From positions 1 through 61,059 of the forward strand of contig CAYLMH010000006.1 of NCBI GenBank assembly GCA_964385055.1: DNA of 61,059 nucleotides. Direction: 5' to 3'. A program made the translations under genes and the position numbers. Shown piece after piece: positions 4,286 through 31,880 of the stretch. How positions within the stretch are numbered: position 1 is the first letter of the stretch; each line of letters begins with the position of its first letter. Origin of the DNA: an uncultured Methanosarcinales archaeon (lineage in GTDB: Archaea; Nanobdellota; Nanobdellia; Woesearchaeales; DSVV01). The notes below the pieces were generated by a model. That model was not told the origin of the DNA, did no database searches, and saw nothing but the letters and a program-made list of their open reading frames with translations.

Positions 4286-4406
4286 AAAAAATAACAACAT
4301 TGGCCAGATGGAGCAAACAAGGTCCCCATACGAAGTGTGGGGTTCTTGTTTGCGAAATAGGGCGTGCGTAAGCACGACCGTCTGTGCCAATGATGTTGTT
4401 ATTTTT
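4286..4406. repeat. Structured intergenic element, family A copy 1
   Basis: Terminal inverted repeat AAAAAATAACAACATTGGC / GCCAATGATGTTGTTATTTTT enclosing two hairpins; similar to 29392-29507 and 31725-31880. Confidence 0.8.
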
Positions 4407-4422
4407 TATTAAATTTAAGAAG

Positions 4423-4806
4423 ATGGTTTTCGCAACAAAACAGGAAATTGAAGAAATTATCGAAAAGATAAAAGAAGAGATTGAAGAAGGAAAACTCATC
4501 ATTCTTGTGGAGGGAAAGAAAGACAAAGCAGCGCTTCTCCATTTAGGTATAAAGGAACAAGTATTCATTCTCAACGGCAAAGACATCTGGAATCGCTTAG
4601 AAGAAATCACGAACAAGAACCCAAAAAAACACATGTTAATTCTCACTGACTTTGATAAAGAAGGAAAAAAGTTGTATGGAAACATCATAAAAGATTGTGA
4701 ACGACTCGGGATGAAAATCAACAAAAAGTACAGAGAATTCTTTCAAAAAAGAACAAAAGTAAGTCAGATAGAAGGATTGGATACATATATAGAGAATGTC
4801 GCATAA
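4423..4806 (+). CDS. Small TOPRIM-domain protein
   Basis: IILVEGKKD and ILTDFDKEG TOPRIM motifs; start moved to MVFATK. Confidence 0.88.
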   Translation: MVFATKQEIEEIIEKIKEEIEEGKLIILVEGKKDKAALLHLGIKEQVFILNGKDIWNRLEEITNKNPKKHMLILTDFDKEGKKLYGNIIKDCERLGMKINKKYREFFQKRTKVSQIEGLDTYIENVA

Positions 4807-4895
4807 GGAGATAAATAGATAATCAAAAATGAACAAATAAAAAATAAGAAAAAATAAATTAAAAATAATAGAAAATACTGCTTCTTCAGTTAAAA

Positions 4896-5090
4896 CTAAA
4901 ATTCTCTTTTAGGTCTTTTCTTAGAATAGCATTCTTTGCAAAAAACAGGTCGTCCTTCTTTTGGTTGGAAAGGAACTTCGCATTCCTGTCCGCACTCAGA
5001 ACATGTTGCTTTGTGCATTTCTCGCGGTCCGCCGAAATCTCGTCTTTGGAAATTTCCACCGTTTCCGCCGCCTCTGTTAAAATCTCTCAT
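4896..5090 (-). CDS. CxxC-x17-CxxC domain protein
   Basis: REMHKATCSECGQECEVPFQPKEGRPVFCKECY. Confidence 0.9.
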   Translation of the reverse strand: MRDFNRGGGNGGNFQRRDFGGPREMHKATCSECGQECEVPFQPKEGRPVFCKECYSKKRPKREF

Positions 5091-5237
5091 TTTCTTTTTC
5101 CTCTGAGCATAGACCTTGTGTCTACGCTACAAGTTCTATGAATAAGCAGGGGTTTAAAAAGGTTCTCATGGAATAGAGGTTTTTGGACTGCTCTCGAGAA
5201 CGAAAGACTAATAAAGACACAGAAAGCCTGAGATTAC

Positions 5238-5687
5238 ATGTACATCCCCAAGCGATACGGTGAATCAAAGACAAACAAATGTCCATTCTGTGAAAAGGAT
5301 GCGTTTTCGCAAAATAAGCAGAAAATTTCTACTTGCAAAGACCATAAAGACACCTTACTGCAGGAAGTAAAATGTGTTTGCGGTTCCTGGCTTGATATGC
5401 GGGAAGGAAAATTTGGTGTTTTCTTTACCTGCATCAATTGCGGCGCGTTAAATCTGCGAAAAGTGCTGGAAATGAACAATATCCAAAGACAAAAAGCAGC
5501 AGCAAAAGAAACAACAACGCCGCAGTACAAGGTACAGACAAAACAAGGAACAAAGAATGAAACCCCGCAACCAATACAGAAGAAACAACAAGTCTACATT
5601 CGCCCAAAAACATTGCAGGAAGTAGAAAGAGAGATGGGCAAAGGCAAAGAAACAATCGTTCGTTCTGATGAATTGGATTTTATTTAA
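5238..5687 (+). CDS. Hypothetical Zn-binding protein (topoisomerase Zn-ribbon-like segment)
   Basis: CPFC...C..H and CVCGSWLDMREGKFGVFFTCINCG; low-complexity basic C-terminus. Confidence 0.7.
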   Translation: MYIPKRYGESKTNKCPFCEKDAFSQNKQKISTCKDHKDTLLQEVKCVCGSWLDMREGKFGVFFTCINCGALNLRKVLEMNNIQRQKAAAKETTTPQYKVQTKQGTKNETPQPIQKKQQVYIRPKTLQEVEREMGKGKETIVRSDELDFI

Positions 5688-5731
5688 TTTGGTTAACATT
5701 TCTTAAATAAGAAGAGAGATCCTAACAAGCA

Positions 5732-6823
5732 TCAAAACAACGCGTACCAAACCAAATACCCAAAATAAAGAAGATACAAAAGCAATAAAATAAACCCTTC
5801 TCGTCGTGTCACAGTCTTGTCTGTCGTAATAAACACTTGGAAAATTGCTGCAAACACAATAAGTACAATCATATCTATAAACAGAATGTGAGGATCAATA
5901 TGGAGAGGAGTAAAAAGAGAGATCACTCCAGGAATAAGTAAAAGTGTAATGATGTTTGCGCCCAAAATATTTCCCACAACAAGATCATATTCTTTTTTCA
6001 TGAGTCCAACAAGAGAAACGACAAATTCAGGCAGTGCAGTGCCAACAGAAACAAGTGTTAAACCAATAATAGCATCGCTGACACCAAAGGCGTGAGCAAG
6101 AGCACTACTTGAGCTCACCACAAATTTTGCGCCAAAAAGGATTGCAACGAACCCCACAAGAAAAACAACACACGTTCTAAAAAAAGTATATCCTATAGTA
6201 AATTCCTGAGAAAATTCCTCAGAAACTTTTTTTGATTCTTGAAGCACAGTATGCCTCCAAGTATAACCAAGAAACAAAAGAAAAAACAAAATCAGCAAAA
6301 CACCATCAATAGACCCAATCACATAGTCTGCGCTCCCAAAGTCAAAGAGACGGAAGGAGAGAACAAAAAGCACAACTGCTGCAAGAAGCAAAAATGGCGC
6401 TTCAAGAAGCACAGTAAAGGATTCCACCACAAGTGGAGAGAACAAAGCAGAAGTTCCCAGAACAAGGCCTAATGTAACGATAACACTGCCAATGAGATTT
6501 CCAAAGAGAAGATCTTCATTGCCAGTATACGCAGCGTAACCACTGACCGCAAATTCAGGAATGCTGGTGAAAAAAGAGACGACAAAAAGCCCAATCAAAA
6601 GCGGAGGAATGCCGAGACTTCTTGCAAGAAAACCCGCAGTAGAAACAACCCAATCTGCTCCTTCAACAAGGAGTACGACTCCTAAAATAAAGAGGGAAAT
6701 CTGTAAGGGAAGCTGCAAATCAAGGAATAGAAAGACAATAATGAGAAAAACTAAAAGACCAAGAAGCGGCAATGCGTTGCGAAAAATACTTCTTTTTTTA
6801 CGCTCAAGATCAGGAACATCCAT
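5732..6823 (-). CDS. Ca2+/Na+ antiporter (CaCA/YrbG family)
   Basis: Two alpha repeats FFTSIPEFAVS...GNLIGS and VGTALPEFVVS...GNILGAN; many TMs. Confidence 0.92.
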   Translation of the reverse strand: MDVPDLERKKRSIFRNALPLLGLLVFLIIVFLFLDLQLPLQISLFILGVVLLVEGADWVVSTAGFLARSLGIPPLLIGLFVVSFFTSIPEFAVSGYAAYTGNEDLLFGNLIGSVIVTLGLVLGTSALFSPLVVESFTVLLEAPFLLLAAVVLFVLSFRLFDFGSADYVIGSIDGVLLILFFLLFLGYTWRHTVLQESKKVSEEFSQEFTIGYTFFRTCVVFLVGFVAILFGAKFVVSSSSALAHAFGVSDAIIGLTLVSVGTALPEFVVSLVGLMKKEYDLVVGNILGANIITLLLIPGVISLFTPLHIDPHILFIDMIVLIVFAAIFQVFITTDKTVTRREGFILLLLYLLYFGYLVWYALF

Positions 6824-6892
6824 GAAAAGAGTAATGCATTCAGAAGTTATATAGTTTGTTGTCTCAAAATGAAACCTTGCTCATCAAAATAC

Positions 6893-7429
6893 TTAAGAGC
6901 GAGGAAAAAACTTTTGATAACTCTTGATTCCACGAAGAATAATGCTCTGTGCTTTTGCTTTGCCAAACTGCCCGCTAATGTGCACTTTTTTGCCTTCAAG
7001 ATTTTTATAGACACGGAAGAATTCCTGAATTTCCTGCTGCGTGTTTTTAGGAAGTTGTTTGAGCTCTGTAATGTCACGAAATTTTGGATCTCCTATGGGG
7101 ACACAAATAATTTTGTCATCGACATCATGGCCATCAAGCATATGGACGCCTCCAATAGGCACTGCTTCAAGAAAAATGCCGGGATGAAATGCGATTTGAG
7201 AAACAACAAGAACATCAAGAGGATCTCCATCCTCACCTAATGTCTGCGGAAGAAAGCCATAATTACCTGGATAATACACTGCGCTTGCGATAACACGATC
7301 AAGCTTAACAATTCCTGTTTTCTTATCAAGTTCGTATTTACAGCGAGAACCCATCGGAATTTCAATAACAGCATTAAGTTCTTTTGGAGCTTTTTTACCA
7401 AGCGGAAGATCATGCCAGAGATGAACCAT
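6893..7429 (-). CDS. ppa: Inorganic pyrophosphatase, family I
   Basis: YPGNYGFLPQTLGEDGDPLDVLV; DDKIICVP. Confidence 0.97.
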   Translation of the reverse strand: MVHLWHDLPLGKKAPKELNAVIEIPMGSRCKYELDKKTGIVKLDRVIASAVYYPGNYGFLPQTLGEDGDPLDVLVVSQIAFHPGIFLEAVPIGGVHMLDGHDVDDKIICVPIGDPKFRDITELKQLPKNTQQEIQEFFRVYKNLEGKKVHISGQFGKAKAQSIILRGIKSYQKFFPRS

Positions 7430-7497
7430 AACTATTTCTAGGAAAAGGAGTTATATAAACATATCGAAGTTGAAAAAAAGAAAAAAGAAAAGAAAAA

Positions 7498-8757
7498 TCA
7501 AGTGCTTATACAAGCACCATTGCTACAAGTTGTTCCCTGTGGACATTTAATCGTTGTGTAGTACGCAGTGTTATCTGATCTACAATATGCTTCGTAGATA
7601 TAATCCGTACTTTTACAATTGTCCTTATACGTCTTCAGCACTTTATCCGTGTACCAGTTTCCTGAAACTTCGCCATAAACTGTTGTGGTGAATGTTTTTC
7701 CACCATAATCTCCATCAGTGTCTTGACAAGTATAACCTGCAAGAGATTGATCTGCACCAGAAGCTGTTCCCTGCTGAGCTGTTGTAGTTTGACCTGTCTG
7801 CTGTCCACTCTGTTGTGTTGTTCCTGCTTGCTGACCACTTGCGGTTCCAGTTTGTTGCCCATTTGTCTGTCCAGCACCAGAAGTAGAGCCAGTGGTCTGA
7901 CCAGAAGTTCCTGTCTGTCCAGTCTGTGTATTTTGAGTAGTCGCAGCAGCTTTTTTCTCATCTATACATTTTTTATATCCTGCTTCGTATCCTTTTTTGT
8001 ATTCTTCTTCAGCTTTTTTCTTTTCTTCTTCAGAAACTTGTGTATTTTGGTTTGTTTGCTGAGAACCAGAAGCTGTTCCTTGCTGAGCTGTTGTAGTTTG
8101 ACCTGTCTGCTGTCCACTCTGTTGTGTTGTTCCTGTTTGCTGACCGCTTGCAGTTCCAGTCTGTCCTGTAGTTTGATCTCCACCAGAAGCTGTTCCAGTT
8201 TGCTGTCCAGAAGTCTGTCCAATAGTGTCAGTCGCGACACAAGTTGCGTCTTTACACATAGTTCCTGTTGGACAGGTTAATGGGTAAGAAGCTGCTTTTC
8301 CATCCGCTGTACAATAATATTCTGTAATAATGGATTTATCTTTGCAAAGATCATACATTGTTTTACCATCTGCAGTAACAGACCCTTTGACAGGAACAGT
8401 AGTTCCTCCTTGAACATCCATATCAGTATCTGTACAGGAAGGAGTAGTGGTATCTCCAACAGCAAGACCTGTCAGAAGCGCAACCTGCTTGTTCATTGCA
8501 GAAGTGTCCATCTTCTTCACTGCTTGCTTTTCAGTATATTTGCCATCGTCTTTGAGACACTGCGTATATCCAGCTTCCAAACCCGCGTCGTACGGAGTCT
8601 TTTCACCAGCAGCAATTGCCTGCCCAGAAAGATCATATCCTCCTAGAGAAAAAGAAAATCCATTTGCAAAAACCATCATGAGGAGCATGCCAATAATACC
8701 TGCTGCGCCTATTGTAGAAGTTGCGTATAACTCTGATTTCTGTTTTGCCATCATCAC
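7498..8757 (-). CDS. Secreted/membrane-anchored surface protein with Cys-rich modules and Q/T/G-rich linkers
   Basis: N-terminal TM; two CxDTD...DxC...E(Y/A)YC...CPxGT.C modules; QQTGT-type repeats. Confidence 0.8.
   Translation of the reverse strand: MMMAKQKSELYATSTIGAAGIIGMLLMMVFANGFSFSLGGYDLSGQAIAAGEKTPYDAGLEAGYTQCLKDDGKYTEKQAVKKMDTSAMNKQVALLTGLAVGDTTTPSCTDTDMDVQGGTTVPVKGSVTADGKTMYDLCKDKSIITEYYCTADGKAASYPLTCPTGTMCKDATCVATDTIGQTSGQQTGTASGGDQTTGQTGTASGQQTGTTQQSGQQTGQTTTAQQGTASGSQQTNQNTQVSEEEKKKAEEEYKKGYEAGYKKCIDEKKAAATTQNTQTGQTGTSGQTTGSTSGAGQTNGQQTGTASGQQAGTTQQSGQQTGQTTTAQQGTASGADQSLAGYTCQDTDGDYGGKTFTTTVYGEVSGNWYTDKVLKTYKDNCKSTDYIYEAYCRSDNTAYYTTIKCPQGTTCSNGACIST
7756..8160. repeat. In-frame 96-bp direct repeat (7756-7851 / 8065-8160)
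   Basis: Near-identical copies 309 bp (103 codons) apart, encoding TGTASGQQxGTTQQSGQQTGQTTTAQQGTASG. Confidence 0.9.
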
Positions 8758-8844
8758 ACCTCTTTTTTTATAAAAAATAAAGTAAAATCAAATAATTACA
8801 TGATTTTTGCAAAAACGAATATATAAACCTATCGAAGAAATCAA

Positions 8845-11217
8845 CTAAAATTCTTTCCATTCACCATCGAGAACATCTTTAATTTGTTTTGCTTTCTTTT
8901 CCCCAAGCTGCGGAACTTTTCGTAACGCTTCTTCTGATGCGTTGACAAAATTCTTGACACTTTTAAATTCTTTAAGAATAGGTTTTGCGAGTGTCGGTCC
9001 AACGCCTGGAAATGCAGTGACCACATATTCCTGCTGATCTTTAAGAGAGATCGGTTTTCGGTCTCCGTGTAAACTAAATCCTTTGTTTTCATCATCTTGT
9101 TCTCGTTTTGCGATTTGCGCGAGCAGCGCAGCGGTTTCTTTAGAAGATTTGGTTTGCAGAACAGGAATCCCAAAATCAACAGTAAGCGCGGCAAGCATGC
9201 CCCGAATCGCGTTTGCGTGAATGTTACGAACAGAATACATATCTTCCATCCCTTCGATAATGTACAAAGGTCGCCCATATGTTTTTTTGAGCTCTTTTGC
9301 CTGCTGAAGAAGTCGTCCATCAATTAAACTATTGACAAAATCAGAAACAGTTTTGTATTCAATCGCGCATCTGCTGCTGAGTAGATAATCGCCTACTTCA
9401 AGCTGTTGCAAATCAATAGAAATTCCTAAATTTAAGAGTTCTTTGATCACATAACTTCCTTTCTCCCGATGATCCACAAAAATAGTGTATTTCTTATCTT
9501 GCTGAACTGGAACAGAAGAGGACAAAAGATTGGAAGGTGAAGAGTTTGAAGAACCAAGGGAAGCAGAGCCAGAAAAGGATGACAAAGAAACAGAGGAAGA
9601 AGCTGATGATCCATAAGCCTGAAGCGGCATTTCTTTTCGCTGGACAGGAGTCTTCGCAAAAATAATATTTTTTTTCAACTGCGCGAGATTTCGGTACATT
9701 CTTTTTTCTTTGTGATGCGCGCTCCAGCGATATCCTTCATCGCGAGTTCCTTTCGTGACCAGAATAAGAACCTCGCCTTCACCATGTCTGCCAGTTCTTC
9801 CTTTTCGTTGAATATGACGAATAGCGCTTGGGATGGGTTCAAAAAAGAAAACAGCGTCAACTTGCGGAATGTCAAGTCCTTCTTCGCCAACAGAACTGGA
9901 AACAAGAACATTAAATGCGCCGTTGCGGAATTCATCAAGCATGCCAAGCTGCTCTTTTTGTGATAATCCAGAACCACGCTTTTTTGCCTGACCAACGAAA
10001 AGTTTTGCGGTGATAGGAATTTCTGGACTGATTTTCAACCCATTGATAATCTCCACAAGTTTTGCGCCAGTATCGCGATATTGCGTAAAGAGAATCAGTT
10101 TGTAATCAGCATATCCTTTTTCATGCGCTGCAATAAAACGCTGAGTCAAAATCTCGCGCAACCGAGGGATTTTCGGATGTTCTACTTTTTTTTCAAGGAG
10201 CCCTTGCAGCTTCATGTATGCAGATTTAAAATTGACATCTGCAACAAGATTTTGGACTGCTTTGACTTTTGAAGTCGCTGCTTGTTTCATAATGTCTTCC
10301 ATGTAGATAAAAAGTGGATCAAGACCTTGTGTTTCCAGAAGTTCAATTGCGTGTTGTACTTTCATTGCTTCTGCGGCAAGAGAAAGTGCGCGAAGCACGC
10401 CAAAATCACGATTGCCGGATGCAATCTCTCCCTGTAAATGTCCCTGCAATTTCAAAAGATCTGTTTTACTATCGCTCAGCTGCATGTTCTGTTCAAGAAC
10501 TCCTTGCTTTTTGATTTCCTCAATTTTGCTTGCAAAACAATCTTTCAGATATTTTTGCACAGTCGCAAATTCAGCAGGAAAATCAACATACTCCCAATGG
10601 AGCGCAACATCCTGTACATACGGAGCAACATCAGGATCAGTGTCTGTGCGCACTTCAATTTGTTCAATCCCTAAATTCGTGATGACTTCTTGAATTTGAT
10701 CAAGATCGCTTCCTGGAGACGCAGTGAGCGCGAGAAGTCGTGGAGAGCGTGCGCGCTGGTGATATTGTTGGCTGATCCACACATAACTGTAATCTCCTGT
10801 TGCGCGGTGTGCTTCATCCACAACAAGGCAAGAAACATTAGACAAATCCACTTTATTTCCAATGATGTCATTCTCCAGACCTTGCGGTGTGGTCACAATA
10901 ATTTGCGCAGTAGTCCAGAGTTGTGCGCGTTTTTCAGGAGAAACATTTCCAGTAAAAACAACAATGTTGTCTGCAAGCGCCGGAAGATGAGTACGAAGCG
11001 TGGTCGCGTGTTGATCAACAAGCGGTTTTGTGGGAGCAAGAATAAGACATTTACTAGTTGGATATTGCGTTAATCGATGCGCGACAAGCATCAGCGCAAG
11101 CGCGGTCTTTCCCATTCCTGTTGGCAGGACAACAAGCGTATTATGCTGAGACACTGTTGCGAAAATAGTTTCCTGATAAAGACGAGGGGTAAAGTTCTGG
11201 ATAAGCGCATTGGACAT
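8845..11217 (-). CDS. hef: Hef helicase/nuclease (SF2 helicase + ERCC4/XPF domain)
   Basis: LPTGMGKT, DEAH, TASPG, EEGLD, QRKGRTGR; C-terminal VDHRE...GDY...IEYK ERCC4 domain and HhH. Confidence 0.96.
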   Translation of the reverse strand: MSNALIQNFTPRLYQETIFATVSQHNTLVVLPTGMGKTALALMLVAHRLTQYPTSKCLILAPTKPLVDQHATTLRTHLPALADNIVVFTGNVSPEKRAQLWTTAQIIVTTPQGLENDIIGNKVDLSNVSCLVVDEAHRATGDYSYVWISQQYHQRARSPRLLALTASPGSDLDQIQEVITNLGIEQIEVRTDTDPDVAPYVQDVALHWEYVDFPAEFATVQKYLKDCFASKIEEIKKQGVLEQNMQLSDSKTDLLKLQGHLQGEIASGNRDFGVLRALSLAAEAMKVQHAIELLETQGLDPLFIYMEDIMKQAATSKVKAVQNLVADVNFKSAYMKLQGLLEKKVEHPKIPRLREILTQRFIAAHEKGYADYKLILFTQYRDTGAKLVEIINGLKISPEIPITAKLFVGQAKKRGSGLSQKEQLGMLDEFRNGAFNVLVSSSVGEEGLDIPQVDAVFFFEPIPSAIRHIQRKGRTGRHGEGEVLILVTKGTRDEGYRWSAHHKEKRMYRNLAQLKKNIIFAKTPVQRKEMPLQAYGSSASSSVSLSSFSGSASLGSSNSSPSNLLSSSVPVQQDKKYTIFVDHREKGSYVIKELLNLGISIDLQQLEVGDYLLSSRCAIEYKTVSDFVNSLIDGRLLQQAKELKKTYGRPLYIIEGMEDMYSVRNIHANAIRGMLAALTVDFGIPVLQTKSSKETAALLAQIAKREQDDENKGFSLHGDRKPISLKDQQEYVVTAFPGVGPTLAKPILKEFKSVKNFVNASEEALRKVPQLGEKKAKQIKDVLDGEWKEF

Positions 11218-11294
11218 GGGAAATGTGAACAGGGTGGTGTTTATTAATGTATTCTCTATAAAGATTTAAAAATTAAGTAGCATTTATTGGAGAA

Positions 11295-16208: not shown

Positions 16209-16211
16209 AAA

Positions 16212-18533: not shown

Positions 18534-18855
18534 GTAGGGTGCCGTAAGCCGTCTTCTGTGCACTTTCACGAAACATGAACAAGTGGTCAGTGTATTCTAC
18601 TCAGCGTTCAAAACGAACTTGCATCAGCAAGGGCTCACCGTTTCATCTTCACTTTGCGAGACGTCAGCAGCTCACTTGGTGCTGTTGCCAGCGACTGTCG
18701 CATGCATCATTCCCTATTCGCAAAGGAGTGCGTTTCTGTGTGGTTGCCATCTTTTTCAAGATCCTACTTCCATAGGTCGCCTTTTTGTGATGGACGGACT
18801 TTCCTCAGGAACAACCCGTTTCAGAGTTGTTTCCGATAACACCGTGACACCCTAC
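18534..18855 (-). ncRNA. rnpB: RNase P RNA
   Basis: Minus strand has GAGGAAAGUCC (CR-I), ACAGAAAC, UGAAACGG, GAUGCAAG and ACAGAAGACGGCUUA (CR-V); P1 GUAGGGUG/CACCCUAC closes the ends. Confidence 0.95.
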
Positions 18856-21377: not shown

Positions 21378-21560
21378 TCAAGAAAACTGATCTGTTGTAT
21401 ATTTCTGCTTGTTGACAGTCGTTGTTGATTTGGAAGAAGTGTCTTTAGTAACACTTCGACTAAGTCCTGTCGCTTTCCCTGCGCGCTGTCGTGACTGCCA
21501 TAAACCTGCTGGCTCGTTCTCACGAGCAGTTCGTCCTGTGCTTTTTCCTTTGATTGCCAT
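21378..21560 (-). CDS. Small basic G/S/T/K-rich peptide 5 (60 aa)
   Basis: MAIKGKSTGRTARENEPAGLWQSRQRAGKATGLSRS...; starts 5 nt after the stop of peptide 4. Confidence 0.65.
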   Translation of the reverse strand: MAIKGKSTGRTARENEPAGLWQSRQRAGKATGLSRSVTKDTSSKSTTTVNKQKYTTDQFS

Positions 21561-21565
21561 AAAAA

Positions 21566-21732
21566 TTATTTGCGAGATACTTTTCCTAGACCTCTCTTTG
21601 CAGCAAGCCCTGATGCACCATATGACTGTCCAGAACCTGTTGTGGTAAATGTATGACCCGCTTTAAGACCTGTTTTATCTGCACTAACTCCTTTTTGTCC
21701 TTTTCTTCCTTGTCCTTCTGTATTACTCCCAT
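21566..21732 (-). pseudogene. Small basic peptide 4 with apparent 1-nt frameshift after the ATG
   Basis: AGGAGG RBS + ATG, but the family-like frame GSNTEGQGRKGQKGVSADKTGLKAGHTFTTTGSGQSYGASGLAAKRGLGKVSRK* is offset by 1 nt. Confidence 0.6.
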
Positions 21733-21759
21733 TAAAATCATCCTCCTTTTTTTATCAAA

Positions 21760-21930
21760 TTATGAACGTTTTTTCAATCCAAGACCACGTGAAGCAGCAA
21801 ACCCTCCTGATTCATTAGCCCCTTTCTGACCAGAACCAGACTGTGCTTTAACAGTTCTTGCTATATTTTTTTCAGAGGTGTCAGTAAATCCCTTCCGTGC
21901 TTGCGTCAGTGTATGTCCTCGAACAACCAT
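21760..21930 (-). CDS. Small basic peptide 3 (56 aa, absent from the ORF track)
   Basis: MVVRGHTLTQARKGFTDTSEKNIARTVKAQSGSGQKGANESGGFAASRGLGLKKRS; GAGAGG upstream. Confidence 0.75.
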   Translation of the reverse strand: MVVRGHTLTQARKGFTDTSEKNIARTVKAQSGSGQKGANESGGFAASRGLGLKKRS

Positions 21931-21945
21931 GATATTCGCCTCTCG

Positions 21946-22116
21946 TTAATTTCTTTTTACTTTACCGCCAAATTGACGTTTTGAAGTAAATTTGCTGTCT
22001 GCTTGACCTTGTACAAAGTCATTTTCGTGTTTTTTTCCGCCAGAAGATTTAGCGCCTGAAGCACTTACAGACATACTTCCACTTTTTTTGTTTGTATAGC
22101 TTTTATCAACCATCAT
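21946..22116 (-). CDS. Small basic peptide 2 (56 aa, absent from the ORF track)
   Basis: MMVDKSYTNKKSGSMSVSASGAKSSGGKKHENDFVQGQADSKFTSKRQFGGKVKRN; AGGTGAG RBS. Confidence 0.75.
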   Translation of the reverse strand: MMVDKSYTNKKSGSMSVSASGAKSSGGKKHENDFVQGQADSKFTSKRQFGGKVKRN

Positions 22117-22161
22117 CTCACCTTTTTTGTTAATAATCTTTTAATAAATAAAATAATCAAA

Positions 22162-22326
22162 TTAATTTTTACGTTTCAAACCAGTTCCTTTGAAACCAAG
22201 TTGTGTTCCCTCAGAACCCATAGTTCCACCAGGAGAATTCCCTGTTTTGTTTCGAGCTCCTGCACTTGCAGTTGCTTTTACTCCTCCTGATTTTTTACTT
22301 GTTGCAGTTGTTTTTGCATCTCCCAT
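22162..22326 (-). CDS. Small basic peptide 1 (54 aa)
   Basis: MGDAKTTATSKKSGGVKATASAGARNKTGNSPGGTMGSEGTQLGFKGTGLKRKN; GAGGTG RBS. Confidence 0.75.
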   Translation of the reverse strand: MGDAKTTATSKKSGGVKATASAGARNKTGNSPGGTMGSEGTQLGFKGTGLKRKN

Positions 22327-23815: not shown

Positions 23816-23827
23816 AAAGAAAAAAAA

Positions 23828-24319
23828 TTATTCTTTATCTATTTTTGTGACATACTTATTTAAGGATAGAGAGCCATTATACTCAGGAGTAAGTGTGTAT
23901 TTAACATCTCCTTTTGTATGAGTTAAACTCCCAAATGTATCACTTACAAGACGGAGTTCTAACACAGCCGAAGAACCTTGGCAAGAAATTACTCCCACTG
24001 TATTGTTATTTCTATCATATTCCTGTGCATAACGCAAACAACCTTTTTCAGGAAGAACAAGACCTGCTGCCTTTAAGTCAGCTTGTTTTTGATCGTATGC
24101 TGCGGAAGTTTCTCGTAATGTCGTATTTCTTCCATCACTAACTCCTGCTTGGTAAAGTGCATTTCCGCCAAAATATAATCCTGTCCCAAGAGCACCTAAT
24201 CCTACTGCCCATGCTGTTGCTTTTCCAAACATTTCCCAACCTTCATTTCTTTCACTCATTTTCATTTCACCTTTTGTCATCTCTTTTTTGTTGTTTCTGT
24301 AATCTATGACTTTCGTCAC
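23828..24319 (-). CDS. Hypothetical membrane-anchored protein (likely start MSERNE, 24259)
   Basis: Single TM AWAVGLGALGTGLYFGG; GGTGA RBS. Confidence 0.65.
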   Translation of the reverse strand: MTKVIDYRNNKKEMTKGEMKMSERNEGWEMFGKATAWAVGLGALGTGLYFGGNALYQAGVSDGRNTTLRETSAAYDQKQADLKAAGLVLPEKGCLRYAQEYDRNNNTVGVISCQGSSAVLELRLVSDTFGSLTHTKGDVKYTLTPEYNGSLSLNKYVTKIDKE

Positions 24320-24422
24320 GATAAGATAGTCACAGAAACAGTTATTTATATTTTTCTTATATTATTAATATGAATAATATAAAAAGCAAAAGTATAAAAG
24401 AAACAGCATCTTTCCAAGAAGA

Positions 24423-25286: not shown

Positions 25287-26584
25287 GAATCTGCCAAACG
25301 AATATCGGCATAGGAGTTATGCAGGGAGAAAATAGAGAATGGACTCTCCGGACCATACGTTCGATAATTATCGCGCATAAACGCAAAATGAGCAAAAACT
25401 TGAGCAAGAACTGTAGGCTCCATCAACCCTAATTTTGTCATCATCTGTCTGACCACATGATCAACTGCTAAATTATAAGGCTGATACTGCTGAACTAAAT
25501 CAGAAACAGCATCAGGTTGTTGTTGAGTGAGCGTGTTTAACGTTGTTGTAACCCCGGAGTTCTGCATTTCTTGATGTGCAAAAATCATAGACGCATACAT
25601 CAACAAACGAGCACCCTGAGGAACAGGATCATCAGCAATATTTTCTTTTGTTTTGCATGCATCATTATAACAATAAGCAAGTTCCAGAAGGTTTCTATAT
25701 ACACGAGAAATTTGATATGCAAATAAAGCACAGGTAGGATCTCGTCCTTCGTTCACTGCACTTTCCATAACAATGTCATTTTTTGCTTTTTCAACTGCAG
25801 TATAGCGCGGTAAGAAGAAGTCTGCCTCTGCTTTTCTGCGAAGCCAATATGTATTGGAAAAGAGATAAGGAGTGTCAAGTAAAAACGAATCGGGATGTCC
25901 TTCAAAAACGCCACCAAGATCAAGACGAACATCTTCTACCCAATTACGACCATTTGCTTCAATAAACCAACGTTTTTCAGATTGTAAAAGAGGTGCAAAG
26001 CGTTGTTCAAGAGTTGCAAGAAAATCAAAGAGTGTCGATGGCACATCGATACCTTCTAAATGAGTATACCTCCCTTTAACTTTTGCGGTGTAAGGAGTAT
26101 TGTTTATAGCAAAAGGAGTTGCTCCAAGCGCTTTGATTTTTTCTTCTTCTTTCAAGAGAAGTCGAGCTTTCTGTTCTTTAGGTAATATCTCTGGTAAGAC
26201 ACCATCCATAACAGAAGCAACTGCATATTTCTCTCGTAAAAGCGCAATATAATGAGGAACATCCAACGCAGGATCAAAAAAGATCTTTTCAAAAAAGGTT
26301 GTGCCAGGAACATAATCCATAACAAAGCCCTCTTCGTCTTCAGAGCGAATATGAGGAACAGAAAATCCTCGTTGAGCATACTCGCGAAGTAAAAAAGTCT
26401 CTAAAGTTCGATCAGGACCAGTAACAAATTTACGGATCGAACCACCAACAACGCGAAAGTCCCCAGGTGGACCAGAAATAACACGAAACACTTCCTCCTC
26501 TGCTCCAGGAATAAATGCATATTCTGCTTGAGCGATAGTTCTTCCATTTCTTCCGCTAAGATCTTTGCATAACAGATAAGTCAT
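25283..26584 (-). CDS. Hypothetical protein with APH/kinase-like region
   Basis: GFSVPHI...FVMDYVPGTT; FIEANGRNW...RLDLG...GHP aligns loosely with the Brenner/DFG regions. Confidence 0.5.
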   Translation of the reverse strand: MTYLLCKDLSGRNGRTIAQAEYAFIPGAEEEVFRVISGPPGDFRVVGGSIRKFVTGPDRTLETFLLREYAQRGFSVPHIRSEDEEGFVMDYVPGTTFFEKIFFDPALDVPHYIALLREKYAVASVMDGVLPEILPKEQKARLLLKEEEKIKALGATPFAINNTPYTAKVKGRYTHLEGIDVPSTLFDFLATLEQRFAPLLQSEKRWFIEANGRNWVEDVRLDLGGVFEGHPDSFLLDTPYLFSNTYWLRRKAEADFFLPRYTAVEKAKNDIVMESAVNEGRDPTCALFAYQISRVYRNLLELAYCYNDACKTKENIADDPVPQGARLLMYASMIFAHQEMQNSGVTTTLNTLTQQQPDAVSDLVQQYQPYNLAVDHVVRQMMTKLGLMEPTVLAQVFAHFAFMRDNYRTYGPESPFSIFSLHNSYADIRLADS

Positions 26585-26713
26585 TTATTTCTCCTCAGTA
26601 ACCTCCTAACACCGCCCCTTTATATATTTTCCCATCATTAACCACTAAACAGTAACGAATTAAGAAAAACAAGCGAAACATTTAAATATAAAATATAGTT
26701 TATAATATATAAA

Positions 26714-26908
26714 ATGACCACCACTGTAGCAGTCAAGGAAGAAACGTTTCATATGTTGCAAGAAGTAAAAGCAGAGCAGGAAGCAGAAAGCTTTGATGAA
26801 GTCATCAAAAAATTAATTTTAGCAGCGAAAAAACCAAAGAAATCCTATTTTGGCGCATTTCCAAAACTAGGAACGTTCAAGAGGGAAGAACTTGACCGTC
26901 TTAATTGA
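26714..26908 (+). CDS. vapB: VapB-type antitoxin
   Basis: MTTTVAVKEET...ESFDEVIKKLI...SYFGA; overlaps the downstream PIN gene. Confidence 0.85.
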   Translation: MTTTVAVKEETFHMLQEVKAEQEAESFDEVIKKLILAAKKPKKSYFGAFPKLGTFKREELDRLN

Positions 26909-27266
26909 TTCTAATTTATGGATAGAATATTTTTCTGGAGCAATGCTTGGGAAAAAAGTGCAAGCACTTATTGAAGGAGAAGAAAAGATCGTGATAAGCG
27001 CAATAAACATTGCAGAAATATATCGACATGTGCTGAGCAAGAGAAATAAAGCAGATGCAGAAAGAGCGAATGAAATTCTCCTGCAATATAGTTTTAGTAT
27101 TCCTGTAACAAATGAGATCGCAAAAGCAGCTGCAATTCTAAAGCATGAAAAAAAAATAGGACTTGCAGATGCAATTATTTACGCAACAGCAACACAGGAA
27201 AATGCGCAAGTAATAACAGCAGACAATGATTTCAGAGGATTTGAAAATACACAAATAATTTCGTAA
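26892..27266 (+). CDS. vapC: VapC PIN-domain toxin
   Basis: VLIDSNLWIEY, NIAEI, LADAIIYATA, ITADNDF. Confidence 0.93.
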   Translation: MTVLIDSNLWIEYFSGAMLGKKVQALIEGEEKIVISAINIAEIYRHVLSKRNKADAERANEILLQYSFSIPVTNEIAKAAAILKHEKKIGLADAIIYATATQENAQVITADNDFRGFENTQIIS

Positions 27267-27308
27267 TAAACGCAAAACTATAATAACCCCTTCTCCCATA
27301 AAAGCGCT

Positions 27309-27827
27309 ATGTCCAAGAAGAAGCAAACAAAGGAAGCAAAAAAATCAAACAGCGCACCGCATCCGCAAATCATGAAGAGTGAAATAGCAATCATGCAGAG
27401 CATTGCGCAGAAGAAGAGTGGCGTCGAACAAAAAATGGAACATTTTGTCGCGATGACTGCAATGCTTCTCTTAATTTTCACAAACATTCTCGGTGCAGTC
27501 TTGCTCATTCCATTTTTATTATTCTTTGAAGGATTTGCGCAATATGTGATTGTTGGAATGTTCGCAGTGGGGTTTGGTCTTATTTTCAACTTCATGATTC
27601 ATTCCATCGAACATTTAGGTGACAAACATCATCTTATCGCAGGCATTGTCGTCCCGACATTCGCATTATTAGATCTTATTATTCTCTTTACACTACTCGA
27701 AAAAATAAAAGAAGTCTTGAAGGTACAAACAGAGTACAATTATGCGTTGATCATTGTACTGTTTGTCATCGCGTTCCTTGTCCCGTATGTCATTGATATT
27801 ATCCGAGGAAAGCATAAGTTTCAATAA
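27309..27827 (+). CDS. Hypothetical membrane protein
   Basis: About four TMs. Confidence 0.75.
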   Translation: MSKKKQTKEAKKSNSAPHPQIMKSEIAIMQSIAQKKSGVEQKMEHFVAMTAMLLLIFTNILGAVLLIPFLLFFEGFAQYVIVGMFAVGFGLIFNFMIHSIEHLGDKHHLIAGIVVPTFALLDLIILFTLLEKIKEVLKVQTEYNYALIIVLFVIAFLVPYVIDIIRGKHKFQ

Positions 27828-27839
27828 AGAGGATTCTTC

Positions 27840-28772
27840 ATGAACAAACTCAAGGAAATGCATTTTTCATTACTTTTAACAGGAATAACTTCCCTCTGTT
27901 TTGCGTTTCCAGCGATATTTGTCAAACTGCTGATGGGCGAACTCTCTCCTATTGGTACATTGACCATTCGTTTCTTGATCGCGGCAGCGTTGTTTCCAGT
28001 TGTGGTGATGATGGTCAAGAAGAATAAGCTCAAAGCAATAGCACATGCAAAAGGAGACGAGCTCAAAGAGTTTTGTATTTTAGGATTTTTATTGTTTGCG
28101 AGCATTGCATCATTATTCAGTTCATTTCTCTATATTCATGCAAACAAAGCAATGTTGATCTATATGATGTATCCCTTGTTTGATGGCATTCTCGCGTGGA
28201 TTGTTCTAAAAGAAAAGATAACAAAAGCAGATACTGCCGCGATGGTCTGCACAATCATTGGCGCATATTTTATTTTTGGTATGAACAGTACAGAAGAAGG
28301 AAGCATGCTGGGGTATGCGCTTGCAACAACAGGAACGCTGCTTTTTGCAGTGTACTCAATTTTCAGCAGAGAAGTAGGGCGCTGTTATGAATATTATAAG
28401 AGAACTGCATGGCTGTTTATTTTCTGTTTTTTTTTCTTTATGATAGCGTTTTTTATAACAGGAAATCCAAAGACAATTTTGCTGCTCACACCAATAAGCT
28501 GGCTATGGCTCCTCTTATTTGGAGTAATTAGTACGCTTATTCCTTATATGTGTTTGAGTTACGCAACTGTCTACTTGAAGTCATCAGTCATAAGCGTCAT
28601 GTTGATTTTAGGAAATGTTATAGGGATTGGATTAATTTCATGGATATTCAATGAGCCAATGACTATTCCCATGTATGTTGGCGCAGGGTTCATCATCTTT
28701 GGTTTTGTGATTACGACAGTTGCAGAGTGGGAAGAAGAAGAGAGAAAGTACCATCATGTTTGTCATCATTAG
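27840..28772 (+). CDS. EamA/DMT family transporter
   Basis: About 10 TMs in two repeats; LTIRFLIAA; AWIVLKEKIT; WIFNEP. Confidence 0.9.
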   Translation: MNKLKEMHFSLLLTGITSLCFAFPAIFVKLLMGELSPIGTLTIRFLIAAALFPVVVMMVKKNKLKAIAHAKGDELKEFCILGFLLFASIASLFSSFLYIHANKAMLIYMMYPLFDGILAWIVLKEKITKADTAAMVCTIIGAYFIFGMNSTEEGSMLGYALATTGTLLFAVYSIFSREVGRCYEYYKRTAWLFIFCFFFFMIAFFITGNPKTILLLTPISWLWLLLFGVISTLIPYMCLSYATVYLKSSVISVMLILGNVIGIGLISWIFNEPMTIPMYVGAGFIIFGFVITTVAEWEEEERKYHHVCHH

Positions 28773-28872
28773 CAATATCTAAGTGTATGGTCGAACAAAG
28801 TGAGTACCATACACGATCTCGCTTCCAATTGGCGAAAGAATTGGAAAATATCATCATGTTTGTCATCACTAA
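28744..28872. repeat. 29-bp imperfect direct repeat of the EamA 3' end
   Basis: GAAAGTACCATCATGTTTGTCATCATTAG (28744) vs GAAAATATCATCATGTTTGTCATCACTAA (28844). Confidence 0.75.
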
Positions 28873-28890
28873 AGAAACAGCGTAATTAGC

Positions 28891-29169
28891 ATGCTCGAAT
28901 ACAGGCAATATAAAATAAAAGAACTACTTGAATTAGAGCCGTGGTCAGCCTATAAACTCGCCAACTATTTCAAAGTAGAAGCAGCAGATATAATGAAAGA
29001 TTTAGAACTGATCAAGCGAGCAATTCGACCAAAGAAAATAGAGATGATTCCTGCAACTTGTGATGGTTGTGGATTTCAGTTGAAAGATCGAACAAAGCTC
29101 AAAGCGCCGACAAAGTGTCCGAAGTGTAAAATCGAGGCAGTGCAGGATCCATTACTCTTCATTAAATAA
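28891..29169 (+). CDS. HTH + Zn-ribbon putative transcriptional regulator
   Basis: IKELLE...SAYKLA...DLELIKR; PATCDGCGF...PTKCPKCK. Confidence 0.88.
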   Translation: MLEYRQYKIKELLELEPWSAYKLANYFKVEAADIMKDLELIKRAIRPKKIEMIPATCDGCGFQLKDRTKLKAPTKCPKCKIEAVQDPLLFIK

Positions 29170-29176
29170 AACAAAA

Positions 29177-29335
29177 CTAATTCTTCGCAAAGAGCAAGCG
29201 CCATGCTAAGACAAGCAACGCAGCGCAGAGAAAGAAGATTGCAATTTTGATGATCACCACATAACGAATAAATTTCTGCTGCACTGTCGTCATTTCAGAA
29301 TATTTTTTCTGTAATGCGCTCAGTTTTTTCTTCAT
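29177..29335 (-). CDS. Small membrane protein (52 aa from MKKKLS)
   Basis: Basic N-terminus + single TM; the longer track ORF runs through element A2. Confidence 0.5.
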   Translation of the reverse strand: MKKKLSALQKKYSEMTTVQQKFIRYVVIIKIAIFFLCAALLVLAWRLLFAKN

Positions 29336-29391
29336 GAAGGAAGATAGAACGAGACTGAATATAAAGATTATCTTATGAAATAATAAGAAGA

Positions 29392-29507
29392 AGCAAAAAC
29401 AACAACATGGCGCCGACGCGACGGGGGTTGGCCCCTTCGGGGTGTCGCGTAGGGCAAAATTCGCAGAATTTTGTCCGTAGGCCGCCATCGTTGTTGTTGT
29501 TTTTGCT
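29392..29507. repeat. Structured intergenic element, family A copy 2
   Basis: AGCAAAAACAACAACATGGCG / CGCCATCGTTGTTGTTGTTTTTGCT ends; internal ACGCGAC/GTCGCGT, GCCCC-TTCG-GGGT and GGGCAAAATT/AATTTTGTCC stems. Confidence 0.8.
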
Positions 29508-29568
29508 GTTCAATAAGTCCCCAATAAAATCATTCTTCGAAAACATTATATACAACAAAGAGAGGAAC

Positions 29569-30864
29569 ATGAGCATGGCAGACACCTTCACCAAAGTCAC
29601 GCAAGAAATTCTGAAGAAATATAAAACATCAAGGAAAGAACACGATATAATCTTAAAGAAAATAGACGGATTTCTCCATGAAATCAGAATTGCGTTAGAT
29701 CACACAGGAGTTGAAGCGTATGTCATGCTTGGAGGCAGCGCAGCAAAAGGAACATTCCTCAAACACGATTTTGACTGTGACATTTTCGTGCGATTTCAAT
29801 ACGATAAATACAAAGAAAAAGACCTTTCAAGTATGTTAGAAAATGCGCTAAAGAAAATAAAGAATCTAAAATACGAAAAAGTCCATGGCTCAAGAGATTA
29901 TTTCACAGGCAAATGGAAAGATCTGCACTACGAAGTAATTCCTGTTCTTTATATCACCAACAAAAATATGGCAAAGAATATTACAGACATGAGCCCGCTC
30001 CATGTCGAATGGTTAAATCAACATATTAATGAAGAAATCAGAGACCAAATCCTGCTCACAAAATTATTCTTCAAAGCGCAAAAAGTCTATGGCGCAGAAA
30101 GTTACATGAACGGTTTTTCTGGTCATGTGGTGGATCTTTTAACAGTGTACTATGGGTCGTTCAAAGCATTGCTCGAAAATATCGAAAAGTGGCAGGAGAA
30201 AGAACTTATCAACATGACGCCGCATCCAGTAAATATGAACGCATTGAATCCTGACAAACTCCAATCTGCAATTATTATCATTGATCCCGTACAGCCAGAA
30301 AGAAACGCCGCAGCCGCAGTGAGTTTTGAACAATTCTACACCATCAAAAATCAAGCGACAGCGTTGCTCGCAAAACCGAGCATAGATTTTTTCAAAAGAA
30401 AGAGTATCACAAAAACAGACATTGCGAAAATAAAGAAGGACGCAACAAAAAAAGACGCAGCATGTATCATCATGAAAGCATTGCCAACACACGGAAAACT
30501 CGACACCATCGGTACAAAGATTTTCAAAAGTTTTGAGTTTATGAAAGAAGAACTAGAAAGAAATGAGTTTCATACAGAAGAATCGGGCTGGGATTGGGAA
30601 GAAGAGCAGGAAAAGCCTGCACTTCTGTGGTTAGTGATAAAAGAAAAGAAACTCTCTGCGATAACAGAGCAGCAGGGACCGCCATTAAAGTTGCAGCAAG
30701 ATGTCAAGGCGTTCCGCGCAAAGCATAAGGACACGTTCTTCAAAGGAGAACGACTGTACGCAAAAATAAAACGAAAATACCAAAAACCTGAAGAACTGAT
30801 CAAAGCAATTCTGAAAGATAAAAGAATTAAAGAAAAAGCAAGAAAGTGGACAATCATAAAGTAA
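29569..30864 (+). CDS. cca: CCA-adding enzyme (archaeal class I)
   Basis: GGSAAKGTFLKHDFDCDIF, DMSPLH, YGAESYMNGFSGH, IIDPVQPERNAAAA; start moved to MSMADT. Confidence 0.96.
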   Translation: MSMADTFTKVTQEILKKYKTSRKEHDIILKKIDGFLHEIRIALDHTGVEAYVMLGGSAAKGTFLKHDFDCDIFVRFQYDKYKEKDLSSMLENALKKIKNLKYEKVHGSRDYFTGKWKDLHYEVIPVLYITNKNMAKNITDMSPLHVEWLNQHINEEIRDQILLTKLFFKAQKVYGAESYMNGFSGHVVDLLTVYYGSFKALLENIEKWQEKELINMTPHPVNMNALNPDKLQSAIIIIDPVQPERNAAAAVSFEQFYTIKNQATALLAKPSIDFFKRKSITKTDIAKIKKDATKKDAACIIMKALPTHGKLDTIGTKIFKSFEFMKEELERNEFHTEESGWDWEEEQEKPALLWLVIKEKKLSAITEQQGPPLKLQQDVKAFRAKHKDTFFKGERLYAKIKRKYQKPEELIKAILKDKRIKEKARKWTIIK

Positions 30865-30931
30865 AAAGAATAGGATAACAAGAGAGAATAGAATAATAAA
30901 AGAGAAAAAATAAAGGAAGCAAAGAAAGAGA

Positions 30932-31528
30932 ATGAAAGAAATAAACCCACAGAAAATTCTGGAACTCAAGCGACAAGCATTTCATGCAGGAATTGGAATC
31001 TTGCTAGTCCTCCTCCTGTACTTTGAAATACTTCCATTGTGGCTTTTCTTCATCATCAATATTACAGGCACAGTAATTTACTTCACTTGGGAAAAAGGAG
31101 CGAGCAAAATATTCACGTGGTTTTTTCATCATTTTGAACGAGAGCATGCGAAAGAAGGTCATGGCGCATTATCGTATGCGTGGGGATGTTTTTTTACCGT
31201 TTTATTTTTCAACACAGAAACAGCATATGCAGCTATCCTCATGCTCGCGTTAGGAGACAGTGTTTCGCATTGGGTAGGACGATTTTATGGGAAAATAAAA
31301 CATCCGTTAAACAAGAAAAAGAAAGCAGAAGGAATAATCGCAGGAATTATGGCAGCGTTTGCAGGCGCAGTGATTTTCATCCCAGCAGCAACAGCGTTTG
31401 GCGCAGCGTTAGTCATAATGAACGCGGAAGCAATCGAATGGAAGCTGGGGAAATACAAGATAGACGATAATTTGTGGATCCCGCTTGCAGGCGCAGTGGT
31501 TATAACGATAATTTCATACATTTTCTAG
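30932..31528 (+). CDS. Dolichol/phytol kinase-like membrane protein (CTP-dependent kinase family)
   Basis: RQAFH, FERE...G, LALGDSVSHWVG, KKAEG..AG, IDDNLWIP. Confidence 0.88.
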   Translation: MKEINPQKILELKRQAFHAGIGILLVLLLYFEILPLWLFFIINITGTVIYFTWEKGASKIFTWFFHHFEREHAKEGHGALSYAWGCFFTVLFFNTETAYAAILMLALGDSVSHWVGRFYGKIKHPLNKKKKAEGIIAGIMAAFAGAVIFIPAATAFGAALVIMNAEAIEWKLGKYKIDDNLWIPLAGAVVITIISYIF

Positions 31529-31724
31529 AAAAGTAATCCTTTAGTATCGTAACAGAACAATATTTCTGTTAACTCCTTAAGAATATTCTTTTTGATTCTC
31601 ATAAAAATAGATTAGGGATTCAAAAGCAATAGGGCGATTCTAAACAAGCACTTCATAATCTTTTTCGTACAAACATTTCGGAGCAAGCTCCGTAATGCAT
31701 TATAAACGCTTTGCGTTTAAAATG

Positions 31725-31880
31725 AACAACAACATGGCCAGACGAAGCAAACGAGGTTCCTATGCCTGAACGAAGTGAGGGCTAGGGTTCTCGTTTGCGA
31801 AGTAGGACAAGCTTTTTGGCTTGTGATATGGAGAAGAGCCAAAAAGTTGGCCGTCTGTGCCATTGTTGTTGTTGTTTTTG
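31725..31880. repeat. Structured intergenic element, family A copy 3
   Basis: AACAACAACATGGCCAGACG ... CCGTCTGTGCCATTGTTGTTGTTG; GCAAACGAG/CTCGTTTGC-GAAGTAGG junction as in copy 1. Confidence 0.8.

Follow-up and report, generated by a model that had tools for sequence, protein, structure and literature searches.

The described systems closest to the repeat family reported here, three copies of which lie in a 61,059-nucleotide stretch of a Woesearchaeota archaeon genome (contig CAYLMH010000006.1, assembly GCA_964385055.1; the whole stretch is hereafter called the window), are the REP/BIME/REPIN repeats and the MITEs (miniature inverted-repeat transposable elements) by behaviour, and the Y RNAs and stem-bulge RNAs by architecture; none of them is related to the family by sequence or covariance model. 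REP/BIME/REPIN (RAYT) repeats are short, intergenic, high-copy, strand-specific hairpins without target duplications, which form mosaics with other modules and differ between strains, and the family resembles them in these respects. However, REP/REPIN elements are bacterial, whereas the family is archaeal and folds not into a simple palindrome but into a branched structure, a three-way junction whose core is invariant and whose bulges are fixed. Their conserved 5' GTAG is also missing, the GUAG of the family being located in the junction linker; no RAYT-like gene was found among the 933 open reading frames (ORFs) scanned, and promoter-like sequence travels with many of the copies.

Like MITEs of the Correia and ERIC type, the family members are small, have no ORF, carry inverted-repeat ends, occur in many copies and are present or absent between strains. 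Their terminal inverted repeat is a stem of ~25 bp, but its outer 8 bp vary and covary instead of being conserved, the interior is under structural selection, target-site duplication is lacking, and no autonomous element sharing the ends was found in 467 kb. A 2024 census of prokaryotic MITEs places a Woesearchaeota genome at 105 MITEs/Mb, among the highest densities in archaea (PMC11602168); the family may be what was counted there. The likeness to Y RNAs and nematode stem-bulge RNAs, which are small and multi-copy, with a long end stem with bulges, a variable interior and a 3' oligo-U, is one of architecture only: similarity is lacking both in sequence and in Rfam, a Ro-binding motif could not be recognised, and the junction core of the family has no counterpart in them.

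In this study, we describe the fold, distribution, neighbourhood and turnover of what is apparently an undescribed, real and well-supported structured repeat family of DPANN archaea, and weigh the explanations for it.

A three-way-junction repeat family in Woesearchaeota

The source of the window is a Woesearchaeota archaeon (DPANN). A full-length archaeal RNase P RNA (RF00373, 137 bits) at 18534-18855 on the minus strand identifies the window as archaeal, and its CCA-adding enzyme has its closest relatives in Woesearchaeota metagenome-assembled genomes (MAGs), with 76% identity to the protein of a groundwater MAG. An earlier note on this DNA had reported three same-orientation copies of a dispersed element, here named C1, C2 and C3; all were found where it placed them, on the plus strand, and the window contains exactly three. 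The layout that it described, with an outer stem, a first arm, a GCG(AAR)UAGG junction and a second arm, was likewise recovered, but the stems reach a few bases further than the ends it gave, to 4286-4407, 29392-29507 and 31724-31880. The inner stem of C2 is CCGAC/GUAGG and not the CAGAYG/CGUCUG of its formula, and the copies it called GC-rich are enriched only modestly (GC content 0.43, 0.55 and 0.46 for C1, C2 and C3, compared with ~0.39 for the window). When the minimum free energy (MFE) of each copy was compared with that of dinucleotide shuffles, none of 200 shuffles folded as well, and the plus-strand folds are 8-12 kcal/mol more stable than those of the minus strand.

The unit is strand-specific and 85-240 nt long, with minimal short forms of ~85-95 nt such as the marine copy L145 (ACAAAAAAUAACAACAAGGCCAGAUGA-GCC GAA GGC-GAAUAGG-ACUUUUAC GUAG GAAAAGUC-CGUCUGUGCCAUUGUUGUUGUUAUUUUUUG). 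A terminal clamp of ~25 bp, P1, pairs an A/C-rich 5' end with a G/U-rich 3' end and consists, from the outside inwards, of the A-rich:U-rich and sequence-variable P1a, P1b (AACAAC/GUUGUU), P1c ((AU)GGC/GCC(AU)) and P1d (CAGRYG/CGUCUG). P1 closes a three-way junction with the near-invariant core CAGRYG(G)A-P2-GA(R)RUAGG-P3-CCGUCUGUGCC, in which the part following P3 reads CCGUCUG. Bulges are confined to the 3' strand of P1: 44 of 51 copies have a 3-nt GUU bulge between P1a and P1b, and 43 of 51 a single-U bulge between P1c and P1d. The arms range from 3 bp to more than 140 nt for P2 and from absent to ~60 nt for P3, and several recurrent arm types are combined differently among copies, so that the earlier description of arms differing in sequence and length yet remaining paired holds across the family. 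The parts of the three window copies are as follows.

4286-4407, plus strand: C1, whole element; model match 4283-4410, 53.1 bits (E 1.8e-13); MFE -63.9 kcal/mol, z -10.3
4286-4310, plus strand: C1, 5' strand of P1 (AAAAAAU AACAACA UUGGC CAGAUG), from the fold and model alignment
4313-4353, plus strand: C1, arm P2 of 'type a' with a C(GAA)G triloop cap, preceded by GA at 4311-4312, from the fold and arm covariation
4354-4359, plus strand: C1, junction strand GAAAUA; its third A (4356) pairs with U4309 as the covarying junction pair
4360-4379, plus strand: C1, arm P3 (GGGCGUGC GUAA GCACGACC), from the fold and P3 helix counts
4380-4407, plus strand: C1, 3' strand of P1 (GUCUG U GCCA AUG AUGUUGUU AUUUUUU), ending in a U-run, from sequence, model and fold
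29392-29507, plus strand: C2, whole element, a divergent subtype; model match 29391-29508, 51.2 bits (E 7e-13); MFE -60.2 kcal/mol, z -6.7
29393-29417, plus strand: C2, 5' strand of P1 (GCAAAAAC AACAACAU GGCG CCGAC), from model and fold
29418-29448, plus strand: C2, arm P2 (GCGAC GGGGGUUGGCCCCUUCGGGGU GUCGC), of a type also present in the L154 copy, from the fold and comparison
29449-29476, plus strand: C2, junction GUA followed by arm P3 (GGGCAAAAUUC GCA GAAUUUUGUCC), from model and fold
29477-29506, plus strand: C2, 3' strand of P1 (GUAGG CCGCCAU C GUUGUUGUUGUUUUUGC), read from the sequence
31724-31880, plus strand: C3, whole element; model match 31718-31883, 43.3 bits; MFE -73.1 kcal/mol, z -8.8
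31724-31744, plus strand: C3, 5' strand of P1 (GAACAACAACAU GGC CAGACG), from model and fold
31747-31798, plus strand: C3, arm P2 of 'type a' with an extended tip, preceded by AA at 31745-31746, from the fold and arm covariation
31799-31804, plus strand: C3, junction strand GAAGUA; G31802 pairs with C31743 as the covarying junction pair
31805-31852, plus strand: C3, arm P3 (GGACAAGCUUUUUGGC ... GCCAAAAAGUUGGCC), of the long type common to many groundwater copies, from the fold and comparison
31853-31880, plus strand: C3, 3' strand of P1 (GUCUG U GCCAU U GUUGUUGUUGUUUUUG), ending in a U-run, from sequence and model

The covariance model that yielded these matches was built from ten short marine copies, all from genomes other than that of the window, and its search gave 74 matches, 51 of them distinct, in 68 sources, including some without the search word. 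The next match in the window, at 36117-36219 on the plus strand (19.5 bits, E ~0.005), lies at the junction of two minus-strand ORFs, agrees with the model only in its stem-like ends and is probably due to chance. Genome scans covered one genome per species, 185,579 species genomes in total. The 3' stem sequence common to C2 and C3 retrieved three more copies, all in Woesearchaeota MAGs, and the exact 20-mer CGTCTGTGCCATTGTTGTTG gave 18 matches, 16 of which belong to Woesearchaeota MAGs, some of marine origin (Saanich Inlet bins) and some from groundwater; the two bacterial matches lack the rest of the structure. The same 20-mer was found at 49 metagenomic loci, while a 15-mer genome scan returned mostly unrelated bacterial matches and only two loci of use. 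The core 20-mer is identical across the marine and groundwater lineages, and even two groundwater genomes share only 76% identity in their CCA-adding enzymes. Copies reach a density of four in 11 kb (locus L158), compared with three in 61 kb for the window, and in four metagenomes holding the population of the window the elements reach a contig depth 10-20 times that of their flanks, as a repeat should.

The family is absent from Rfam 15, a comparison that had been proposed for this element. At gathering thresholds, the only match in the whole window is the archaeal RNase P RNA mentioned above, and a search of C1, C2 and a marine copy at E-values up to 10 returned only sub-threshold chance matches: lactis-plasmid (28 bits against a threshold of 70) and mir-194 (18.7 bits against 52). 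In the literature we found neither the fold, nor the core, nor the family described as such. The family is uncatalogued and, within the reach of these scans, found in Woesearchaeota.

The comparative statistics were obtained for the 51 distinct sequences, in an alignment fitted to the covariance model, which favours the structure. Standard pairs occupy 92.5% of the cells, and in 34 of the 35 pairs both sides have changed. The covariation score of 0.421 falls to 0.05-0.09 when the partners are slid, and none of 500 shuffles reaches it. All eight P1a pairs show double changes, so that the outermost stem differs among copies and is still paired. For the 'type a' P2 arm, an independent MAFFT/RNAalifold analysis found compensatory changes in six of 15 pairs. 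The fold is secure despite the model-fitted alignment, given the effect size, the many pair types in the outer stem and the independent analysis of the arm, and covariation supports a conserved three-way junction across the 51 copies.

Not only pairing but also its strand is maintained. G.U pairs outnumber A.C mismatches by 67 to 10, and the wobble positions of P2 are G.U in 14/14 and 7/14 copies and U.G in 13/14, so that selection acts on one strand of a single-stranded form. The non-Watson-Crick G.A positions are invariant.

A second pairing was detected at the junction. Among 50 copies, perfect covariation links the Y of CAGRYG to the R of GA-R-UAGG: the pair is C-G in 40, U-A in nine and U-G in one and is never unpaired, and the U-A pairs are scattered over unrelated subtypes. 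The neighbouring R pairs with the following U (A-U in 32 copies, G-U in 14 and G-C in one). The same two 5' nucleotides can alternatively pair with an invariant G and U of the 3' strand, where only the 5' side varies. Divergent copies retain both pairings; in C2, the linker and the 3' strand both read GUAGG, and CCGAC can pair with either. A full switch of the 5' junction strand to the linker is 7-13 kcal/mol worse than the minimum, which makes the full alternative fold unlikely as a resting state. In the nearest-neighbour model, a hybrid junction lies within 2-6 kcal/mol of the minimum; in it, P1d retains three pairs, and the two nucleotides that follow are paired to the linker and stack on the G.A pairs and P2. 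From the covariation we infer that a hybrid or two-state junction is the best description.

These observations bear on whether the copies could be functionless DNA palindromes, kept complementary by template-switching during replication with no selection on the fold. Compensatory change can be mimicked by long inverted repeats whose arms homogenise, and the arms of the family do seem to grow by palindromic extension. However, homogenisation would erase bulges and G.T pairs, the non-canonical G.A positions would not be expected to stay fixed, and the two segments joined by the covarying junction pair do not form the arms of a single palindrome. The retained bulges and wobble pairs lead us to reject this very improbable explanation.

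Turnover of copies and signs of mobility

The comparison of orthologous loci proposed in the earlier note revealed that copies come and go between related strains, all three window copies being missing at the corresponding sites in relatives. C2 is missing upstream of cca in the MAG with 76% protein identity, and a contig of run X8 joins 29396 directly to 29534. Another contig has 11 nt in place of 31528-31895, which includes C3, and contigs of runs X8 and X9 have 27-37 nt in place of 4255-4428 at the C1 site, where a stop codon and the next start codon are separated by a short spacer and nothing else is present. At this divergence it cannot be told whether the filled or the empty site is ancestral. 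Elsewhere, L155 and L186 consist of a 3' fragment alone, L190 is a 5'-truncated copy, and L175 carries a 100-nt insertion after GGCCA. Hairpins are inserted into the 3' strand of P1 in L150, and insertions in stems and loops are also found in L160. At the orthologous loci L129 and L202 the element is kept and the arms are different.

A strict non-autonomous mobile element with terminal inverted repeats, as first proposed for these copies, is not borne out. Adjacent direct repeats at the ends of the 51 copies measure 0 nt in 24, 1 nt in 21, 2 nt in five and 6 nt in one, indicating no target-site duplication. No transposase and no long composite with these ends was seen in the 467 kb examined, and the HUH/Y1 (RAYT) motif scan of the 933 ORFs therein found none, each genome being only partly covered. 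Moreover, the outermost inverted repeat differs among copies and stays complementary, unlike transposase-bound ends. A viral, phage or plasmid origin was also rejected: the 20-mer scan of viral contigs returned nothing, and phage and plasmid records gave no meaningful similarity.

A looser form of mobility, which we consider somewhat less likely than RNA genes (see below), is the main rival explanation, namely a non-autonomous repeat of the REP/REPIN or IS200/IS605-like kind that acts as folded single-stranded DNA. An enzyme encoded elsewhere would act on the hairpin or junction of one strand, and any RNA would be incidental. The density and depth of the copies, their absence from matching sites in related strains, and the truncated copies and those with insertions all fit such a repeat, as does the lack of target duplication, which is shared with IS200/IS605-type elements. 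Tolerance of G.T and not of A.C also suits a one-strand DNA substrate, and predominant C-GNA-G triloops and the lack of a universal TATA peak (see below) point the same way. On the other hand, the scans of the 467 kb gave neither a HUH/Y1 enzyme nor a composite, the outer ends differ among copies, and the repeated unit often takes in unpaired promoter-like sequence outside the hairpin. Co-directional neighbours impose no orientation bias on the copies (7 vs 8), viral contigs, phages and plasmids gave no match, and a core that is the same in very divergent hosts could be explained only by strong selection or repeated transfer.

Neighbouring genes and flanking modules

The genes downstream of C1, C2 and C3 encode a TOPRIM protein, the CCA-adding enzyme and an ABC ATPase, each on the plus strand and with the copy 15-60 nt upstream, in agreement with the earlier note. 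As a family trait, this position does not hold outside the window, where orientations are mixed. The neighbours of 38 copies were analysed, with both neighbours called in 30 and the downstream gene in 33. All 38 copies are intergenic, all four orientation combinations occur (neighbour pairs are divergent in 11, co-directional in 15 and convergent in four), and the downstream gene is on the opposite strand in 13/33. The downstream genes are unrelated, encoding a likely lumazine synthase and others in addition to the three products named above. The family is independent of its neighbours; their occurrence in every orientation means that it is not a leader or riboswitch. Control of the downstream gene by such an element, suggested by the arrangement in the window and by a junction with two alternative pairings of the kind found in expression platforms, is scarcely credible in view of the opposite-strand and functionally unrelated genes, and orthologous genes in relatives do without the element.

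Several features of these neighbourhoods were noted in passing. An ATG within C2 (AACAUGGCG) is in frame with the CCA-adding enzyme gene, with no intervening stop codon (29407-29568), so that gene callers may set the start 54 codons early, inside C2; the true start is likely at 29569. At L146 303-987 (the same region as L158 8945-9629), a gene lies between two outward-pointing family copies in a composite-like layout. It was considered as a transposase and rejected: by sequence it looks like riboflavin synthase, an ordinary housekeeping gene, adjoining a likely lumazine synthase. L167 contains two copies back to back, with 7 nt between them. A small ORF or type I toxin within the element was dismissed, since frames opened by the AUG of AUGGCC stop after 11-49 codons, arrive at the 3' strand in frame 0, 1 or 2, and are not available in marine copies, which lack this AUG. 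Away from the copies, positions 21378-22326 of the window (minus strand) contain a tandem of 4-5 small ORFs (~50-60 amino acids) for K/G/S-rich basic proteins resembling small stress-protein repeats.

A cis-acting transcript-boundary element, in which a stable hairpin with an A-run and a U-run stops or insulates transcription both ways or protects mRNA 3' ends, would account for the intergenic location of all copies. A U-run of at least five nucleotides follows P1b in 37/51 copies, and the hairpin and U-run layout is the same on both strands, the 5' A-run being a T-run on the opposite one. We nevertheless consider this explanation improbable: divergent genes, which do not require a terminator between them, flank 11 of the 30 copies for which both neighbours were called, and the junction core, fixed bulges and junction covariation are superfluous for termination. 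The strong strand asymmetry is unlike a two-way device, and relatives without the element have spacers of only ~10-35 nt at the same sites. A plain terminator was rejected likewise, about a third of the copies lying between divergent genes.

Upstream, two groups of copies share additional modules. Seven marine copies (L145, L153, L150, L155, L087, L137 and L186) have a common block of ~75 nt, in which two TAGTG(A/T)G-like boxes (TAGTGAG, AGTGTT) enclose a small covarying hairpin and are followed by AAGAG and TTTTTTAATT, ~20 nt before the stem; it may be a regulated promoter. The tRNA-Val promoter of a related marine MAG (L152, SI047_bin3) does not have this block. Ten groundwater copies (including L188, L160, L166, L185, L193, L200 and L204) share an A/T-rich box, a palindrome and a hairpin, exemplified by L188 at ~1005-1110 and 7065-7150 on the minus strand, upstream of its copies. 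The palindrome GAGACGC-N13-GCGTCTC directly follows the A/T-rich box, is positioned where an archaeal operator would be expected to overlap the start site, and shares AGACG/CGUCU with the inner stem of the family; the hairpin has a covarying 12-bp stem and the conserved loop UCACAAGAAUUGUUC. Upstream of C3, positions 31560-31723 of the window hold small hairpins (CGGAGC AAG CUCCG and AAACGC UUU GCGUUU) and AUUUCGGAGCAAGCUCCGUAAUGCAUUA, which recurs upstream of the L160 and L166 copies inside the loop of another hairpin module. The stretch looks like a remnant of a second repeat module.

Small RNA genes as the favoured explanation

The undescribed structured noncoding RNA that the earlier note had offered as its alternative is the reading that we favour, unproven as it is, and we tentatively rank a proliferating family of small structured RNA genes first, at slightly less than an even chance. 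The working form would be a small noncoding RNA read from the given strand, with transcription driven by the promoter-proximal elements that travel with many copies and the transcript ending in the U-run that the clamp's 3' strand supplies. Both ends would be held and protected by the clamp, a conserved partner (most probably a protein) would dock at the junction core and bulges, and the arms would serve as spacers. Pairing of the 5' junction strand with either the 3' strand or the P2-P3 linker could give a refined or switchable junction. The elements are multi-copy, at about one per 3-20 kb, and turn over rapidly by gain or loss, truncation, nesting and arm exchange, so that the family acts as a proliferating, partly selfish gene family.

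In favour of RNA stand the covarying fold with its conserved bulges and junction pair, the selection on one strand, the unpaired promoter-like sequence that accompanies many copies, the U-run behind the stem in most of them and the 20-nt core shared by distant hosts. Several observations weigh against RNA genes. For a marine copy, no contigs were obtained from three marine metatranscriptome runs, and a search for RNA runs matching the window found none. No sharp TATA peak occurs at a fixed distance across all copies, the U-run is part of the A/T-rich outer stem, and no partner protein was identified. The terminal loops are mostly C(GAA)G and related C-GNA-G triloops (24/76), compared with a single GNRA loop; C-GNA-G triloops are a signature of very stable DNA mini-hairpins and are not typical of functional RNAs. 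The missing orthologous copies and the truncated and nested ones also resemble a mobile repeat more than a housekeeping RNA gene. The RNA-gene and single-stranded-DNA readings are not exclusive, and a proliferating RNA gene would show both sets of features.

A bolder version of the RNA reading, which we hold to be unlikely, is a new class of archaeal small RNA: regulated, multi-copy, clamped end to end and with a bistable three-way junction, which would either form a lineage-specific ribonucleoprotein (RNP) or aid its own spread. Such spread would proceed by an RNA-dependent mechanism or by a hairpin-dependent one with no known enzyme.

Other known structures were compared with the fold. Type I hammerheads are similar in having three helices, an open end in stem I and GA-[stem]-GA tandem pairs by the second helix, and the CAGAUGA ... 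GAA ... GUC of the U-A subclass is close to CUGAUGA ... GAAA ... GUC. They were excluded by the absence of the invariant U4, A14 and A15.1-U16.1, with most copies reading CAGACGGA / GGAGUAGG, and by the lack of a model match at E up to 10. The attC sites of integrons, which have been reported from archaea as well, are imperfect hairpins of 60-140 nt with an AAC...GTT foot, extrahelical bases on one strand and a variable tip; here, however, orientations are mixed within loci (+,-,-,+ in L158) with no same-orientation arrays, the flanks are housekeeping genes with no integrase alongside, and the junction core is not an attC feature. A box C/D sRNA or K-turn is not formed, as CAGRYGA of the 5' strand and CUGU of the 3' strand are both in regular helix and no 3-nt bulge precedes the G.A pairs. 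Also rejected were 5S rRNA, with its identical layout of three helices (because of copy number, variability and the lack of an Rfam match), a bulge-helix-bulge processing stem (all bulges are on one strand) and a loop-E/sarcin-ricin motif (AGUA/GAA; G is replaced by A in the U-A subclass). For tRNA-like, split or permuted tRNAs, ARAGORN found none in the window, and the element has no T or D arm motifs. At L153 460-720 (minus strand) there are two adjacent tRNA genes with apparent T-loop introns, of which ARAGORN misses one and probably mis-ends the other; such introns, and not the family, likely explain why tRNAs are seldom called in related loci and not at all in the window.

The genomes of DPANN archaea are among the smallest and most streamlined of cellular ones, and to our knowledge almost nothing is known of the noncoding RNAs of these archaea. 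The covariance model is ready for annotating Woesearchaeota genomes, and the family accounts for assembly breaks in Woesearchaeota bins and cautions gene callers against false start codons such as that inside C2. Structural and biochemical studies also gain a well-defined RNA or single-stranded DNA fold whose junction may have two states. If the new-class reading is true, this would be the first family-wide structured repeat system described for DPANN archaea. With dozens of copies and a core as conserved as those of universal RNAs, yet gained and lost between strains, the family is either an important lineage-specific RNA or RNP or a successful selfish element of a kind undescribed in archaea.

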